Source of the DNA: a virus
Length of the DNA stretch: 12,499 nucleotides
Direction: 5' to 3' (one strand)
UHGV virus genome: UHGV-0112872
The position numbers and the translations under genes were made by a program. This document shows positions 505 to 12,062 of the stretch, one piece after another. Under the pieces are notes generated by a model, which was not told the DNA's origin, did no database searches, and worked only from the letters and a program-made list of their open reading frames with translations. Position 1 is the stretch's first letter. Each line of letters opens with the position of its first letter.

Positions 505-1536
505 TCAAAAACTTGCTATTGATGTTGGTAGTGTTGCCAGCGGATTAAACCGTAATGCAGTTTCCAGGTGATCCGGTGCCAGATGTGCGTAACGCATAGT
601 CATTTTTATATCGTGGTGTCCGAGAATTTTTTGTAAGGCCAGAATGTTTCCACCCGACATCATGAAGTGCGCCGCAAACGTATGGCGCAGAACGTGTGTC
701 AGTTGACCGCGAGGGAGCACGATAGACGTTTTTTCCATCACGGATAAAAATTGAAAATAGCAGTCTGTAAAGAAATTGAACCCATCAAGCGCCATGATCT
801 CTTCGTAAAGCTCTTTACTGATAGGGATGCTTCTGTTTTTCTTCCCCTTCGTTCTTACAAAGGTAATTCGGTATTTGGTCACCTGTGAGCGGGTAAGATT
901 TACGGCTTCACGCCAACGTGCGCCTGTGCTTAAGCATATCTTAACTACCAGTGCCAGAATTGGGTCCTGACGTTTGCAATCAGCCAGCAATTCAACAATC
1001 TGCTCATGGGTAAGCCATGCCATCTCTTTTTCTGCGATGGTGAATTTTCGCATGTTCTCCAGTGGGTTCGGATACGACCATTCGCCCAGGCGGGATAGTT
1101 CGCTAAAAACACTACTTAGATAGCTTTGCTCCAGGTTAATGGTGACCGGGCTTGCTCCTTTCTTCCATTTCTCGCTGAAGTAGATCTCACCTGTCAGGCG
1201 TTTATCTCGATAGTGGGCAAACATTTTAGATGTGAGATCAGTTGCAAGGGGATTGCCCAGAGCGTCAACCATCAGCAGCAATTTGTCATAGACATGCTGC
1301 CCAGCTGTCAGAGATTTACCATGTAGTTTGAACCATAGCTCAACCACGTCTTTCAGTGTTCGACGATCCACTGATTCACCCAGCCAGGGCTTTGCTTCGG
1401 TTTCTTCCATCGTGTGGCGCTCAAAAGCCAGTGCTTCGCCTTTGGTGACGAATTGTTTACGCACACGACGCCCACTACGTCCGGCGGGGTAACATTCGCA
1501 AAGCCATTTTCCTGTGGTGAGTTTTCGTACAGCCAT
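505..1536 (-). CDS. int: Tyrosine integrase, P2/186 family
   Basis: Six-frame ORF 505..1692; start assigned to the internal ATG at 1536, preceded by GGAGGG (product begins MAVRKLTTGKW). Tyrosine-recombinase signature segments present: ICLSTGARWREA (Arg), HVLRHTFAAHFM (H-x-x-R), GHHDIKMTMRYAHL (catalytic Tyr region). Overall pattern matches my recollection of the P2 Int C-terminal domain. Confidence 0.9.
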   Translation of the reverse strand: MAVRKLTTGKWLCECYPAGRSGRRVRKQFVTKGEALAFERHTMEETEAKPWLGESVDRRTLKDVVELWFKLHGKSLTAGQHVYDKLLLMVDALGNPLATDLTSKMFAHYRDKRLTGEIYFSEKWKKGASPVTINLEQSYLSSVFSELSRLGEWSYPNPLENMRKFTIAEKEMAWLTHEQIVELLADCKRQDPILALVVKICLSTGARWREAVNLTRSQVTKYRITFVRTKGKKNRSIPISKELYEEIMALDGFNFFTDCYFQFLSVMEKTSIVLPRGQLTHVLRHTFAAHFMMSGGNILALQKILGHHDIKMTMRYAHLAPDHLETALRFNPLATLPTSIASF

Positions 1537-1724
1537 AAAAAATGCCCTCCAATAGAGAGCATTTTTACTGTATGTATAACCAGTGTCAATGTATGAAATC
1601 CTGCGACCATACATCTCACTGAAGCCATAATGAAGTAGGCTATTCTTTTTGCTATGTGAGCATGTAACTTTTGCGGTTAACCTGTGGCTCATTTTTATTT
1701 TAGGCGCAGATATAAAAGCAAAAG

Positions 1725-1916
1725 TTATCGTGAGTTTTTAGTACAGATTTTTTTGGATTTACTAATAGTTCCATCATTGCAAACGAATTTGCCATCAGAG
1801 GTACAGTGAGAAACACCTCCCTTTTTCCCTGAGCAGGGATAATTTCTAGCATAGGTAGCTAGTGGGTTTAATAACAAAGAACATGACAAAACCACAAAAA
1901 ATACCTTACCAAGCAT
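1725..1916 (-). CDS. Small (63 aa) predicted secreted cysteine-containing protein, moron-like insert between int and cI
   Basis: Strong RBS (GGGAGG about 7 nt upstream of ATG on minus strand). N-terminal hydrophobic signal-like segment [23 protein letters not shown] followed by a polar, Lys-rich region with four further cysteines. Embedded in a conspicuously AT-rich stretch (1693-1931). Confidence 0.5.
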
Positions 1917-1931
1917 AGTTTCCTCCCGGTA

Positions 1932-2501
1932 CTATTTAACATACTTGACTGTTAAACTTATAATTTTACCAATTATTTCAATGTCTTCTATCTTGCATTC
2001 GAAGGCTCTGTTTCCACCCTCGACGAAGATTCTTCCACCGGGTAAACGAGTAATGTCACGGATCGTTATTTCGCCATCAATACTTATTACCCATTTACCA
2101 TCACGTATATCATCAAATTCCTTATCACAAATAAATTCAGAATTATTATCTGTGATTACAAAAAGATTCTTGAATGCCGACGGTAGAAATTCTCTATCGA
2201 AAATATAAAAACCGTCTTCACACAAGGCCCCATCAGATAATACATATTTAGCAACTTCCATAGTATTTGTATTACCTGAAGTTTGCTTTGAACCATGCCC
2301 GGTTGTGAGCCAATTAAGCGAGGTGCCTGTTTCAAGGGCGCACTGGATTACCCATTCTGCTGGGAATGAGTCACGCATGTAGCGTGTGGCGAGTGTACTT
2401 TTAGAGATTCCTAAATGATCGCACAACGCCTGTCGAGTCTTGAATCCATAAGCTTCTACCATGCGCTCTATAGCGCCTCGTCCGCCTTTCTCCAAATTCA
2501 T
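1932..2501 (-). CDS. cI: CI-like immunity repressor (186-type), HTH DNA-binding protein
   Basis: About 189 aa from ATG at 2501 (GGAG 7 nt upstream; an alternative in-frame GTG lies at 2507). Helix-turn-helix-like segment TRQALCDHLGISKSTLATRYM near the N-terminus. Leftward orientation upstream of int and divergent from the Apl/CII operon matches 186 architecture. Confidence 0.75.
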   Translation of the reverse strand: MNLEKGGRGAIERMVEAYGFKTRQALCDHLGISKSTLATRYMRDSFPAEWVIQCALETGTSLNWLTTGHGSKQTSGNTNTMEVAKYVLSDGALCEDGFYIFDREFLPSAFKNLFVITDNNSEFICDKEFDDIRDGKWVISIDGEITIRDITRLPGGRIFVEGGNRAFECKIEDIEIIGKIISLTVKYVK

Positions 2502-2507
2502 GGTCAC

Positions 2508-2626
2508 TCCAAGTGAACTTTTATCTTGACGATTTCACTGTGCGATCGTATGTTTATGGTGTTCACAAAATACAAACGATCCGTATTCGTCCTGATTAAT
2601 CATCATTAAACGAGGAATGTTGCATC
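2508..2626. promoter_or_regulatory. Lysis-lysogeny switch region with candidate rightward early promoter (pR-like)
   Basis: Candidate sigma70 promoter reading rightward: -35 TTGACG (2526-2531), 17-nt spacer, -10 TATGTT (2549-2554). Hexamer repeats GTGAAC (2513-2518), TTCAC (2534-2538), GTTCAC (2561-2566) flank and overlap it, consistent with operator half-sites. Confidence 0.5.
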
Positions 2627-8532: not shown

Positions 8533-8668
8533 TAGGTTTCGTTTGTAATGAGTCATGTTTTTTGAGTCCGATAGTAGACAGCTAGAGGGATAAATGATTA
8601 ATAGATAGATTAAACATAGTGATGGGCGTAAAATCGCGCGCATTTTATTGGCAACGGATCTGAACTCA

Positions 8669-9562
8669 ATGGCGGATAAGACTCAATCAGTAAGTATTGT
8701 GTATCAAGGCAAAGCTCTCGACGATCATAAGATGGATATTCTTTCGTTTGCGAAAAGTTTGCAGGGGCTAGGTGAGGCTATCTACTCTGCAAATGAGATT
8801 GTAAACGGAGGGCGAGACATTGAAGTTAACGTTGACGCTGAATTGATAGCCGGTTCCTTTGGGTTTGATATTGAGGTTGTACAACATCTAGCTAATGCTA
8901 AAGATGTTGTACAAATTTTAGGTTTGTCAGCCATTCCTTTAGCCGTTGGCGGTGCTACAGTTTTAGAGGTTCTCAAGAAGCTTAACGGGCGTAAGATCGA
9001 CATAGTCGAGAAAGCTAACGGTAGTGACAAAGTTAAGCTGAAAGTCGATGGTGAAGAGATTGTTTGCTCTGAAGATGTCGAAAAAATCGTTAATGCCCCA
9101 GAGATTCGTAAGGCTGTTGACGCGTTTGTCAGACAGCCTCTGTTACAAGATGGTATCGACAATTTTGTGGTAAAAAAATCGCGCACCTCTAAGAAAGAAA
9201 TCCTCAAAATTCATAAAGATGAGGCAGAAGAGTTTAAGTCGCCAAAAGTTCTCTTTGAAACCAAAGAAGAAGTTGACGAATTTGAAACAACCGTGACATT
9301 CGTTTCGGCGCATACTGACAAAAAAAGTGGCTGGCGTGTTGAGTTTGGCGGTGAAAAGCGCAATGTCAGAATGGAAGATAATGAGTTCATCAAGCTTGTT
9401 ACTGGACCAGACGCCCCCAAAATTTTTGGCGAATTGTTTGCTGTGAAGATGAAGAAAATTGTGAAAGATTCCGGTGGCCAGGTAGACGAAAAGTTATCGA
9501 TCATCAAAGTGGGTCGACACTTTGCCGCCAAAGATAGAAAAATAAAACCTGATGCGGATTAA
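8669..9562 (+). CDS. Cargo module 1, gene 1: uncharacterised 297-aa Lys/Glu/Asp-rich protein with one internal hydrophobic segment
   Basis: Long ORF (ATG 8669; alternative in-frame TTG 8648) in an AT-richer block. Hydrophobic stretch ILGLSAIPLAVGGATVLEVL around residues 85-105, then a long highly charged region. No catalytic motif recognised. Confidence 0.6.
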   Translation: MADKTQSVSIVYQGKALDDHKMDILSFAKSLQGLGEAIYSANEIVNGGRDIEVNVDAELIAGSFGFDIEVVQHLANAKDVVQILGLSAIPLAVGGATVLEVLKKLNGRKIDIVEKANGSDKVKLKVDGEEIVCSEDVEKIVNAPEIRKAVDAFVRQPLLQDGIDNFVVKKSRTSKKEILKIHKDEAEEFKSPKVLFETKEEVDEFETTVTFVSAHTDKKSGWRVEFGGEKRNVRMEDNEFIKLVTGPDAPKIFGELFAVKMKKIVKDSGGQVDEKLSIIKVGRHFAAKDRKIKPDAD

Positions 9563-9564
9563 AA

Positions 9565-9828
9565 ATGTCTATAGATATTAGTGTGTTAGGATGGTTGGGG
9601 CTGCTTGTTGCAGCTCCAGCTATATTTATAGGTGCTAGAGTGGCTATACGTAGCCTGCTCGATCGAGTTATTGTCGAAACAAAAGTTTCTATCACTTATA
9701 CTGATGCAAACAAAAATGTCTATAAAACAAATATTTATATAAACAATGATGATGAGTTAATAAAGCTCATCGATGATATAGCAGAGAAAAATAAGCGTGA
9801 GAGGAAGGAGTCAGCCTCTCATGCCTGA
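9565..9828 (+). CDS. Cargo module 1, gene 2: small single-pass membrane protein (87 aa)
   Basis: ATG 2 nt after the upstream stop (tight coupling); N-terminal hydrophobic helix GWLGLLVAAPAIFIGARVAI followed by a charged soluble tail. Confidence 0.55.
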   Translation: MSIDISVLGWLGLLVAAPAIFIGARVAIRSLLDRVIVETKVSITYTDANKNVYKTNIYINNDDELIKLIDDIAEKNKRERKESASHA

Positions 9829-10237
9829 ACAAAAGAAAACAAGCGGTAAAGCAGTCGGTGTTACAGGTGGCGGCGGTGTAGGCCTTTTCCTAATAAAGCT
9901 GGCTAGCTTCATTACAGATCCAACATGGAAAGACCTTTACATTGCTTCAATACCGATGGTGTCAATTCTTTTAAGCGAAGTTTTTACTTTTGCATGGACG
10001 ATTTATGCTGTTGATCCGCAAGAAATCAAACTGAAAAGGCGGTTGAAGGCTCTGAAGAAGCAAGCCGAAGCAGTTTTAAATGCACCATCGTCCCCTGTTT
10101 CTCCAGAAATGCGAGAGAAAGCGCAGGCTCGTTACGACGTGATCTGTGGAATTGAAATGGGAATTTACCCCCTCTCAATTGTAAATACGCTAGATGGAAA
10201 AGTATCCCCCACAGCGCAAACGCCGGACGTTAAATAG
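9821..10237 (+). CDS. Cargo module 1, gene 3: small two-helix membrane protein (138 aa)
   Basis: ATG 9821 preceded by GGAAGGAG and overlapping the upstream gene by 8 nt. Two hydrophobic segments (GVGLFLIKLASFI; IASIPMVSILLSEVFTFAWTIYAV) followed by a Lys-rich helical tail. Confidence 0.55.
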   Translation: MPEQKKTSGKAVGVTGGGGVGLFLIKLASFITDPTWKDLYIASIPMVSILLSEVFTFAWTIYAVDPQEIKLKRRLKALKKQAEAVLNAPSSPVSPEMREKAQARYDVICGIEMGIYPLSIVNTLDGKVSPTAQTPDVK

Positions 10238-10300
10238 CAGTTTCTACTTTGCATGACTATGCTGCATGAAATCGCATGATCGTTTGAGGATCGTTTTTGC

Positions 10301-10328
10301 AAAAGCCCGCCAGAACTGGCGGGCTTTT
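10301..10328 (+). terminator. Rho-independent terminator closing the right-arm operon
   Basis: GC-rich inverted repeat GCCCGCC (10305-10311) / GGCGGGC (10318-10324) followed by TTTT (10325-10328) and preceded by AAAA. Confidence 0.7.
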
Positions 10329-10373
10329 GCGTAGAGCATGCATCTGCATGAAAACCACTACATAAAGCGGGCA

Positions 10374-10392
10374 GGCGTGGCGGGGATACGAG
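10374..10392. other. Candidate cos site (cohesive-end motif of P2/186-type phages)
   Basis: GGCGTGGCGGGGATACGAG followed by GCGCGCGCT. The first 13 nt match the 186 cohesive end as I recall it (GGCGTGGCGGGGAAAGCAT; P2 is GGCGAGGCGGGGAAAGCAC), and the flanking GCGCGCT resembles the sequence next to the P2 left end. These reference sequences are from memory. Confidence 0.6.
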
Positions 10393-10522
10393 CGCGCGCT
10401 AACTCTTGGCTTTGTTTCATAATCAAAAATGTGATCATTGAGATTATTCTTAAATTTGTGTTTGTCTATGAAATATCATTTCGCTTAACATTGTTTGAGT
10501 TAGGACTACATGAGAATAAAGA

Positions 10523-11098
10523 ATGCTTTTACCCGTAAGTATTACATCGTGTGGCTTGTATCACCCCTACTGGCATTTGGGAGAGCGCAACCCTCATAGC
10601 GATGAACTATCAAGGCAGATGATGGATTTTAAGGATGAAAATAATCGTAATCATCAAAGGGCCATTAACCGTTTTTCTCGATTAGCTATAGATAAGGTTG
10701 GGCGGTTAGTAATCAGAGGTGGCGGTGGGCGTTTTGTTGAGTCTCCTTTTTCGATAGCAGTTGTCCCGTCTCACACTGAAGGCAGAATTTCACCGGCTTT
10801 GATTGAGGTCGCCGAGCGAATCGTAAATGTTCACCGTCGGGGCATTGTTGATTGCTGTTTGGAAAGAACACGCACTGTTCCTAGCGCACATCGTGAAGGT
10901 GGAGATCGCTCAATTACTGGTCACATGTCTAGTATCAGAGTTAGGGGTGGTAACCTCATGGGGCGAAATGTGTTACTACTAGATGATGTTAAAACAACAG
11001 GCGGTAGTTTGTCTGCGTGTTTTTATTTACTGGAGTCTGCAGGAGCTGGAGTTATAATGCCATTAGCTCTGCTAGAAACTGCAAACTATGAGGAGTAG
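10523..11098 (+). CDS. Cargo module 2, gene 1: phosphoribosyltransferase (PRTase, type I) domain protein
   Basis: PRPP-binding signature VLLLDDVKTTGGSL near the C-terminus, the classic type I PRTase motif also seen in ComF-like proteins. Start uncertain: ATG 10523 has a weak RBS; in-frame ATGs at 10619/10622 are alternatives. Confidence 0.7.
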   Translation: MLLPVSITSCGLYHPYWHLGERNPHSDELSRQMMDFKDENNRNHQRAINRFSRLAIDKVGRLVIRGGGGRFVESPFSIAVVPSHTEGRISPALIEVAERIVNVHRRGIVDCCLERTRTVPSAHREGGDRSITGHMSSIRVRGGNLMGRNVLLLDDVKTTGGSLSACFYLLESAGAGVIMPLALLETANYEE

Positions 11099-12062
11099 CA
11101 AAGTGCACTCAGAAGAATTAAAAAATACACTTGGATTAGCTATTCAAATCGGGAAGCTAGCATCTGATCAAAGTGTATTAAAATTCTTTGAGCTTATCGA
11201 TTTTGATGTTATTCGTGATATACGCGACTTAACTGAGATGGTTAATAGCCACGGGTTTCTAAAAGATAAAATATCTGAGACTGATTTTCTAATAGCGAAC
11301 GCTGAATTGGAGAACCACCATGTTAATGGTGTGGAGCTAATACCATATGGGTCTGAATTCTATCCTCTTAGTTTAGCTTTTACTCCTAATCCACCATCAA
11401 TTCTCTACATAAAAGGGGATAAAAGTATACTCAAAGAATTGCCGGGTGTCGCAATTGTAGGATCCCGTGATACCTCCCCTGCAGGGGAAGAAATAACGAG
11501 GCGGATCACTAATCAGATAGTGTCTGCTGGGTATATTGTTGTAAGTGGGTTAGCAATAGGCACTGATGCGAATGCTCACAAGGCAACGTTACAGGCAAAA
11601 GGAAAAACCATTGCTGTCTTGGCGCATGGTCTTGAGGAGGCTAAGCCGAAGCAAAACAGTCGACTTGCTCAAGAGATTCTGGATAAAGGTGGTGCATGGA
11701 TTTCTGAGTATCCTATGGGTCGGCCGGCCCAGAAACAATCATTTGTACAAAGAAATCGGATACAAGTTGGATTATCTGCAGGTTCAATTTTAATCGAGGC
11801 TGCGTTAAATAGCGGAACGATAACTCAAGCTGAGTTTGCAAATAAGGCGAAAAGACCAGTGTTTGCGGTTGTACCTCACCTACCTAATAATCCGCTTAAT
11901 CTTAATTGTGAGGGAACAGTTGATTTAGTTAAGAGCAACATGGCTAGAGCGCTAAAAACAAAACGGGATTATGATGATGTGATTATGATCATAAATGAGT
12001 CCCGGGAGTATTTGTTAGAGCTAAAATGGCCAGGGAAACAGAGTACATTAGACTTGATTTAA
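11088..12062 (+). CDS. Cargo module 2, gene 2: DprA/Smf-like (SLOG / Rossmann-fold DNA-processing-A domain) protein
   Basis: Segments GVAIVGSRDTSPAGEE, VVSGLAIGTDANAHKATL, KTIAVLAHGLEE, SEYPMGRPAQKQSFVQRNRIQVGLS and RPVFAVVPHLP follow the conserved order of DprA/Smf cores. Overlaps the PRTase gene end; an in-frame GTG at 11103 with AGGAG 7 nt upstream is a plausible alternative start. Confidence 0.8.
   Translation: MRSSKVHSEELKNTLGLAIQIGKLASDQSVLKFFELIDFDVIRDIRDLTEMVNSHGFLKDKISETDFLIANAELENHHVNGVELIPYGSEFYPLSLAFTPNPPSILYIKGDKSILKELPGVAIVGSRDTSPAGEEITRRITNQIVSAGYIVVSGLAIGTDANAHKATLQAKGKTIAVLAHGLEEAKPKQNSRLAQEILDKGGAWISEYPMGRPAQKQSFVQRNRIQVGLSAGSILIEAALNSGTITQAEFANKAKRPVFAVVPHLPNNPLNLNCEGTVDLVKSNMARALKTKRDYDDVIMIINESREYLLELKWPGKQSTLDLI

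Follow-up and report, generated by a model that had tools for sequence, protein, structure and literature searches.

The DNA analyzed here, a 12,499-nucleotide stretch of the virus genome UHGV-0112872 (the window), is the left end of an Escherichia coli P2/186-like prophage inserted immediately downstream of rcdA, and our subject is a 63-codon open reading frame (ORF) that lies between the genes for its integrase (int) and its immunity repressor (cI). Strain PEC41 carries the same DNA, with 99.8% identity over window positions 1400-2600, and is annotated there in the order rcdA, hypothetical protein, phage integrase, YdcA family protein and phage repressor CI, followed rightward by Apl-like, CII, Fil and further genes; within the window, cII is identified by Pfam Phage_CP76. 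The RefSeq entry for the ORF in PEC41, at the same coordinates, is WP_001513672.1, 'YdcA family protein'. An earlier, sequence-only reading had seen in this interval a small exported, cysteine-containing protein. Family matches, purifying selection and a signal-peptide-like leader indicate that the ORF is indeed a real, conserved gene, and that its product is a small protein with four cysteines that is predicted to be exported.

All three genes are on the minus strand. The 186-type repressor gene (1932-2501), identified by Pfam Phage_CI_repr (E 3e-33), Pfam Phage_CI_C (E 3e-27) and RefSeq, lies upstream and ends in a TAG stop codon at 1932-1934. A GGAGG Shine-Dalgarno sequence (1922-1926, by direct reading of the sequence) is located 5 nt past this stop and 5 nt before the ATG of the ydcA-like gene (1914-1916), leaving a gap of 15 nt between the two genes. 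The ydcA-like gene itself (1725-1916) comprises 63 codons and a TAA stop (1725-1727), and is supported by the ORF list, NCBIfam NF007463, PHROG 6000, RefSeq and the ratio of non-synonymous to synonymous change (pN/pS). It is followed by the 3' untranslated tail of the cargo module (1597-1724), which is delimited by repeat and terminator scans and by a break in similarity at ∼1596, and in which the repeat scan found an imperfect inverted repeat (1665-1679 / 1713-1727). The last 60 bp before int (1537-1596), recognized from genome matches and a promoter scan, are a conserved int leader that includes the int Shine-Dalgarno sequence and forms the right-hand border of the variable slot. The integrase gene (505-1536; Pfam Int_N and Phage_integrase, RefSeq) is downstream in the operon.

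Between the cI stop and the start of int at 1536 there are 395 bp, as had been estimated, and the 63-residue ORF with a strong ribosome-binding site that was pointed out earlier is the gene described here; the interval then boxed, 1693-1931, corresponds to the ORF and its flanks. The description of this DNA as an AT-rich insert held only in part. The gap between cI and int has a guanine-plus-cytosine content of 37% compared with 45.8% for the whole window, but AT-richness alone is not a marker of an insert: at 33.6%, the C-terminal half of cI falls below the gap.

In phage 186, the lysogenic transcript from pL spans cI and int. A terminator scan of the window, whose site counts (like those of the promoter scan) were not above those in shuffled sequence, predicted none on the minus strand, including the interval from the ORF to int. 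Because the 186 transcript covers both flanking genes and no terminator is predicted, we infer that the ydcA-like product is made in lysogens together with the repressor, and the proposed position in a lysogenic cI–int operon is upheld to that extent. The 15-nt gap and the separate Shine-Dalgarno sequence are further indicators of operon expression, and expression in the lysogen is likely on these sequence features. The 60-bp int leader may act as a leader for int or as a promoter independent of pL. A search of the window against Rfam at the gathering threshold returned no match and hence gave no sign that the spacer contains an RNA element. We also note, without claim, a promoter-like TTGACA-17-AAAAAT at 1589-1561 upstream of int, since the scan that found it performed no better than chance.

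The N-terminus of the ORF product is hydrophobic, with a maximum Kyte-Doolittle 9-residue mean of 2.7, and the sole plausible signal-peptidase-I site ahead of the conserved core is the junction between TYA and RN, after residue 23, by the -3/-1 rule. The signal-peptide call rests on hydropathy, on this rule and on comparison with homologs. Across 28 aligned sequences, the first ∼23 residues are hydrophobic yet unrelated in sequence; all of these leaders end in an A-x-A-like site, and Ala23 at position -1 is invariant. This pattern, divergent leaders that give way to a nearly fixed sequence after Ala23, is characteristic of a folded domain preceded by a cleaved signal peptide. We assign residues 1-23 (1848-1916, minus strand) to a predicted Sec signal peptide and, drawing also on composition, the conserved core and an AlphaFold model, residues 24-63 (1728-1847, minus strand) to a predicted mature peptide.

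The mature peptide would have 40 residues, a mass of 4.3 kDa, an isoelectric point (pI) of 9.7 and a net charge of about +7. Its four cysteines, C28, C38, C46 and C58, are all invariant in the alignment, and a fifth, C12, is in the signal peptide and is not conserved. Both the signal-like hydrophobic segment and the four cysteines of the mature part that the sequence-only reading had picked out are properties shared with the homologs. The conserved core, PCSGxKGG..C..F.C.DG..S.SK..C, has a mean column identity of 75% among alpha-, beta- and gammaproteobacterial members, and the window protein has every invariant column of this core. AlphaFold predicts a small two-stranded sheet domain, with a mean predicted local distance difference test score of 77 for the full-length protein and 80.5 for the mature part.

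The residues around C12, VVLSC at positions 8-12, are loosely lipobox-like, which would fit an outer-membrane lipoprotein of the Cor/Llp type that is acylated at Cys12 and blocks a phage receptor. By the lipobox rule of PROSITE PS51257, however, Lys4 falls within a stretch expected to be uncharged, and the leader before C12 would be just 11 residues long. Moreover, Cys12 is absent from most homologs, among them chromosomal YdcA and the HP2, Moraxella and Acinetobacter members, whereas the A-x-A site ∼11 residues further on is common to all. We conclude that there is no lipobox, because Cys12 is not conserved; the lipobox check that had been suggested earlier came out negative, and an acylated receptor-blocking protein is largely refuted and highly improbable.

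Comparison of the window ORF with its counterpart in BL21(DE3) revealed 13 nucleotide differences, 11 of them synonymous and two non-synonymous (pS 0.257, pN 0.014). With pN/pS at about 0.05, purifying selection on the coding sequence is strong by this measure.

The protein belongs to a family that has already been catalogued. It scores 114.6 bits against NCBIfam NF007463 (PRK10040.1-2), for which the curated cut-off is 93, over residues 5-63, with weaker matches to two sister models, and it matches PHROG 6000 with an E-value of 3e-34. Its cluster at 90% identity comprises 355 sequences, is represented on at least 1000 contigs and carries a precomputed PF27300 hit, and such hits are present on 63 homologs; the local Pfam copy predates this family. 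The current RefSeq name is 'YdcA family protein', and older records read 'hypothetical protein'. We found no basis for the UniRef cluster label 'Conjugal transfer protein' and did not rely on it: plasmid matches were mostly from Acinetobacter and Rhizobium, and the three contexts inspected had no adjacent transfer genes except for a TraD-like gene on pApiMCR53a. Two further candidates were rejected. A GULLO2-like match in the local Pfam copy is sub-threshold (E 0.076) and attributable to chance, and weak PDB sequence matches to plant Pin-II protease inhibitors and lectins (E 0.2-6) are noise generated by the cysteine pattern. The literature search found no paper that mentions the prophage protein accessions or PF27300, phrog_6000, NF007463 or PRK10040. 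Papers on the gonococcal genetic island, the ColV plasmid pS88 and Bacillus also use the name 'ydcA', but we set them aside because these are probably systematic locus names with no relation to the family.

The gene is also common. It is found in 648 of 5,426 complete E. coli genomes, including BL21(DE3), other B strains and HS, and for 592 of these genomes the match covers at least 80% of the query. Relatives are encoded on at least 534 viral contigs of IMG/VR, the best 80 of these loci being near-identical copies only. A family profile search of 1.84 billion representative proteins returned 468 clusters at 50% identity (E ≤ 1e-3), and with one genome per species, 148 species of Alpha-, Beta- and Gammaproteobacteria match two diagnostic peptide patterns. 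The homology search that had been called for thus leads to the YdcA family and to an ORF that is conserved. Since the gene is both catalogued (as YdcA family, PHROG 6000 and PF27300) and common, its existence is not a discovery.

These results bear directly on whether the ORF could be a chance or decaying, functionless frame in an AT-rich spacer. Its shortness, the base composition of the region and the name 'hypothetical protein' in many records would be compatible with that explanation, but it is refuted by conservation: the low pN/pS, a score above a curated hidden Markov model cut-off, the distribution of the 468 clusters over Proteobacteria, the strong Shine-Dalgarno sequence and the intact state of the gene in 592 of its 648 E. 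coli carriers leave it the least probable of the alternatives that we considered.

In some family members the domain occurs two or three times in tandem, with Ser/Lys-rich linkers between the copies, and the 37-residue unit thus behaves as a repeatable module. Betaproteobacterial members (locus L162, 4986-5348; proteins P0056-P0062) have a second, C-terminal cysteine motif, C.C....C.GPRGG.YC, which in the L162 protein is a weak match to Pfam PBCV_basic_adap (E 3e-4).

Comparison with related prophages, which had been suggested as a check on the insert, indicates that the cI–int junction is a variable cargo slot in which the ydcA-like gene is optional. The slot is empty in phage 186, whose cI stop and int start overlap, and in SopEPhi, where 1 nt separates the two genes. 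In HP1 it holds four small ORFs, orf4 to orf1, and no ydcA-like ORF. Klebsiella phage 4LV2017 has a 349-residue protein of unknown function at this position, and vB_EcoM-813R9 has a 558-residue protein that matches PD-Lambda-1 in PADLOC. Three E. coli prophages at the same rcdA site were also compared. LD91-1 shares this int (96.5%), but its slot is filled by a PDC-S20 KAP-family nucleoside triphosphatase (NTPase) in place of the ydcA-like gene, and TUM13773 has the ydcA-like gene followed by PDC-S20. In SOI121, a related cI is followed by a 9-codon ydcA-like remnant, MLGKAFVVV and a stop (locus L015, about 2500-2530), and then by a second CI-like gene and a PDC-S20 KAP NTPase, which suggests that recombination within the signal-peptide region swapped the cargo. 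Sister prophages therefore have PADLOC matches, to PDC-S20 and PD-Lambda-1, in the very slot that holds the ydcA-like gene here.

The int-proximal limit of the variable module can also be placed. About 470 E. coli genomes match only window positions 1400-1596 of the prophage and differ in their cI and cargo, so the module ends ∼60 bp upstream of int and leaves the conserved int leader behind. Klebsiella phages match window positions 1502-1594 at 95.7%. Presence in some prophages and absence from related ones is classically a mark of lysogenic-conversion genes, or 'morons'. A 2026 survey identified the integrase–primase interval as a minor defense hotspot, accounting for ∼8% of the systems in P2-like prophages (NAR 2026, PMC13586616).

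Placement of the gene behind a repressor is not confined to the E. coli prophage. In a species-level survey in which the best 80 loci were examined, a 186-type cI and/or int adjoins the gene in eight. The order cI, ydcA-like gene, int occurs at three Yersinia loci, where cI is 34-39% and int 48% identical to the window's, and at two near-identical Escherichia-type loci; only cI and cII were detected at a Buttiauxella locus and only a partial int in Citrobacter, and at one Atlantibacter locus the gene is downstream of int. At another eight of the 80 loci, all betaproteobacterial (Comamonas, Iodobacter, Deefgea and others), the gene lies on the same strand as, and just downstream of, a helix-turn-helix (HTH)-type repressor-like ORF. 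The Comamonas testosteroni repressor combines Pfam HTH_3 with Peptidase_S24; its locus, which also contains Ogr/Delta and gpD, is a P2-like prophage. The Haemophilus phages HP2 and S2 have a 60-residue ydcA-like ORF, unannotated in the GenBank records, whose ATG overlaps the cI stop and which is followed by the exported orf1(S). Taken together, the Yersinia and Escherichia-type loci, the betaproteobacterial loci and HP2 indicate that phages of three or more lineages, whose repressors are divergent or of different kinds, place this gene in a lysogeny operon.

Other settings were also found. In Moraxella and Acinetobacter phages, the gene is in the morphogenesis or tail-gene region, and on two mobilizable plasmids, a 3.9-kb plasmid of Acinetobacter and a 5.4-kb plasmid of Psychrobacter, it is one of only five annotated genes each. 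We looked for a conserved partner gene beside ydcA-like genes in phages and on small plasmids and found none in the window; the only similarity was a weak one (E 2e-8) between the membrane proteins that follow the ydcA-like gene on the two plasmids (L011, 728-1697; L012, 2932-4091).

E. coli also has a chromosomal member of the family. YdcA, which has been described as a 57-residue predicted periplasmic protein of unknown function (PMC11340327), is encoded between hokB and cybB, next to rydC. Like the prophage protein it falls in the NCBIfam PRK10040 group and has a signal peptide followed by the same type of core, and the mature parts are ∼70% identical. It differs in that its best model is NF007462 rather than NF007463, its signal peptide is unrelated in sequence and its gene has no linkage to a phage repressor or integrase. 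Deletion of ydcA sensitizes E. coli W to 300 mM 3-hydroxypropionate, and the gene is reported to be acid-induced under YdcI (PMC7642389).

The main rival to a phage-serving role follows from this paralog: the prophage gene might simply supply an extra, constitutive copy of a periplasmic YdcA that improves tolerance of envelope or of acid and organic-acid stress. The ∼70% identity of the mature cores, the deletion phenotype and acid induction all agree with such a host-fitness role, and the extreme conservation of the mature peptide over chromosomes, plasmids and phages would fit the recognition of a housekeeping ligand. The phenotype, however, was reported by one study only, with no mechanism attached to it, and the repeated placement of the gene in lysogeny operons, at moron positions in tail modules and on tiny plasmids argues for a benefit tied to mobile elements. 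Sister prophages, moreover, have defense genes in the same slot. We regard the host-fitness explanation as unlikely, but as a competitor to be taken seriously.

A second line of comparison leads to secretion machines. The only relative of the window protein in the PDB is chain AN of 7MUC/7MUD, Legionella pneumophila Dis2 (Lpg0823), which was found by phmmer (E 3.2e-5) and with the family profile (E 1.3e-4). As part of the Dot/Icm outer-membrane cap, Dis2 is described as lying close to the outer membrane, with two similar lobes, five disulfides and no structural relatives (PMC8486379); it has been called Legionellales-specific, dispensable for assembly and subtle in its effects on translocation (PMC12716638). 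Alignment by hhalign of a profile of mature YdcA sequences only with 21 Dis2 homologs gave a probability of 91.4% (E 8.9e-7) over 28 columns of lobe 1, and with three Dis2 sequences it was lobe 2 that aligned (79.5%). Dis2 is also the top PDB match in Foldseek for both predicted models, with a query-normalized template modeling score of about 0.6, and five Dis2 homologs carry a precomputed PF27300 hit. The Dis2 lobe motif reads C-[CS]-x-x-GG-[VI]-x-x-C-x(3,4)-G-x-x-V-C-N-[DN]-G-x-x-S-x(2,4)-C. Homology between YdcA and Dis2 is probable from these comparisons, and Dis2 looks like a degenerate tandem of two YdcA-type domains.

In ∼13 Enterobacterales species, a protein of ∼135 residues with an N-terminal YdcA domain is encoded inside a type VI secretion system (T6SS) cluster. 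Combining two loci annotated with Pfam gives the gene order TssF, TssG, TssJ, TssE, an unnamed gene x, YdcA-like, a T5orf172 protein, a NERD/UvrD helicase and VasL; within these two loci, tssJ precedes the YdcA-domain gene by one or two genes. In these proteins (L124, 4995-5399; L165, 4971-5381; and ∼11 more loci), the YdcA domain is followed by a low-complexity linker and a C-terminal CAPLYMASKPGYTHLPIC tail. The repressor-adjacent placement in a slot shared with defense genes, and the links to Dis2 and the T6SS, appear to go beyond the existing annotation of the family.

The same contexts help in judging whether the lysogen secretes the product as a toxin, bacteriocin or antimicrobial peptide, a role that the sequence-only reading had allowed for. 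A 4.3-kDa mature peptide with a pI of 9.7 and four cysteines has the look of such a molecule, and there is weak, non-significant similarity to Pin-II protease inhibitors (E 0.2-1.8). A Sec signal peptide in E. coli, however, delivers its cargo to the periplasm only, and no dedicated exporter, immunity or lysis gene is adjacent. E. coli has its own chromosomal paralog, many family proteins are tandem fusions or are joined to other periplasmic domains, some are encoded in T6SS structural clusters and the mature sequence is far too conserved for a toxin engaged in an arms race. A toxin-like peptide is thus disfavored, and we consider it very unlikely.

The reading that we favor, with somewhat better than even confidence, is that this is a functional YdcA-family gene whose product is made in the lysogen, exported and active in the cell envelope as a conversion factor. 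The gene would be co-transcribed with cI from pL; Sec would export the precursor, with cleavage after Ala23, and two disulfides would lock the 40-residue mature peptide in the periplasm. These export, cleavage and disulfide steps follow general knowledge of the Sec and Dsb pathways. On the periplasmic side of the outer membrane, the mini-domain might then bind a conserved component of the envelope or a machine that spans it. This is the weakest step, and the outer-membrane-proximal site of action is suggested by the T6SS context and by analogy with Dis2, the only relative whose location is known from experiment. In the prophage, the protein would serve the lysogen by modifying its envelope. 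The single most likely benefit is the exclusion of superinfecting phages, a tentative guess, well short of even, that takes its lead from the known and candidate defense genes that otherwise occupy the slot.

Several points weigh against this interpretation. In PADLOC-DB 2.0, neither the window protein nor its TUM13773 homolog matches any defense family, and the argument from the slot is guilt by association. The literature search found no function-defining experiment on any YdcA-family member, and the only phenotype found is the 3-hydroxypropionate sensitivity of the chromosomal ydcA deletion (PMC7642389). The mature peptide is very highly conserved, unlike typical exclusion and immunity proteins, which evolve fast. 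Finally, it is by inference that we arrive at pL transcription, export, cleavage and disulfide formation. Overall, what the sequence-only reading observed at this locus is confirmed, and its interpretation is partly supported.

The gene is of some practical interest. About one in eight complete E. coli genomes carries it, those of the laboratory workhorse BL21(DE3) and of the commensal strain HS among them, and the protein is probably made constitutively in those lysogens. The comparative picture, of a gene found time and again right after the repressors of divergent P2-like prophages, in a slot that also takes defense genes, and with relatives in T6SS clusters and the Dot/Icm cap, opens inexpensive experiments for a family that is functionally uncharacterized. 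A connection between Dis2 and a Proteobacteria-wide domain would, if confirmed, be useful to the secretion-system field. A bolder version, which we think improbable, is that the YdcA/Dis2 mini-domain is a widespread outer-membrane-proximal module that docks onto or guards against trans-envelope nanomachines, that P2-like prophages of Gamma- and Betaproteobacteria repeatedly position it right after their repressor, and that in the periplasm it might shield every lysogen from phage genome delivery, T6SS attack or conjugative entry. If true, exported exclusion factors would gain a new and very small class, and E. coli YdcA and Legionella Dis2 would each have a first function.

The remainder of the window contains further accessory genes. 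On the minus strand at 177-446, in the interval between int and att, is a gene for an 89-residue hypothetical protein with no significant match in Pfam or PADLOC; BL21(DE3) has a different protein, of 110 residues, in this slot. On the plus strand, a candidate defense protein of the PDC-S42 type (8648-9562; E 8e-44) is followed by a Shosta system made up of ShosT (10523-11098; E 4e-14) and ShosA (11088-12062; E 3e-70; Pfam DNA_processg_A). The region that contains PDC-S42 and Shosta (8648-12062), between the DinI-like and portal genes, corresponds to the known GpA–GpQ defense hotspot of P2-like phages.

Of the systems with which the locus can be compared, the HP2 ORF (NC_003315, 2486-2668, minus strand) occupies the same position. 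It matches PHROG 6000 with an E-value of 7e-23 and lies after cI and upstream of int in a P2-like pL operon; it differs in its Pasteurellaceae host, in a cI that is only 33% identical and in the second exported protein, orf1(S), that follows. Dis2 resembles the prophage protein in being exported and in the detectable homology of its lobes to YdcA, but it has two degenerate lobes and ten conserved cysteines, whereas the prophage protein has one domain, four cysteines and two predicted disulfides. Dis2 is, in addition, a stoichiometric subunit of a type IVB secretion system (T4SS), Dot/Icm, and the prophage window has no T4SS genes.

The cargo of the defense hotspots of P2-like phages (Rousset 2022, PMC9122126; PMC13586616) is comparable in that sister prophages hold PD-Lambda-1 or PDC-S20 at the cI–int junction. 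The dominant hotspot cargo consists of cytoplasmic NTPase and nuclease systems, whereas the ydcA-like product has 63 residues, is predicted to be exported and has no PADLOC match.

A last comparison is with T4 Sp, φ80/N15 Cor, T5 Llp and P2 old/tin/fun, which we take to be representative exclusion and conversion 'morons' of prophages. As in those cases, a small accessory gene for an envelope or defense function sits between core phage genes, varies among relatives and is placed for expression in the lysogen. The ydcA-like gene has no sequence relationship to any of them, and its product is predicted to be neither a lipoprotein nor membrane-anchored.

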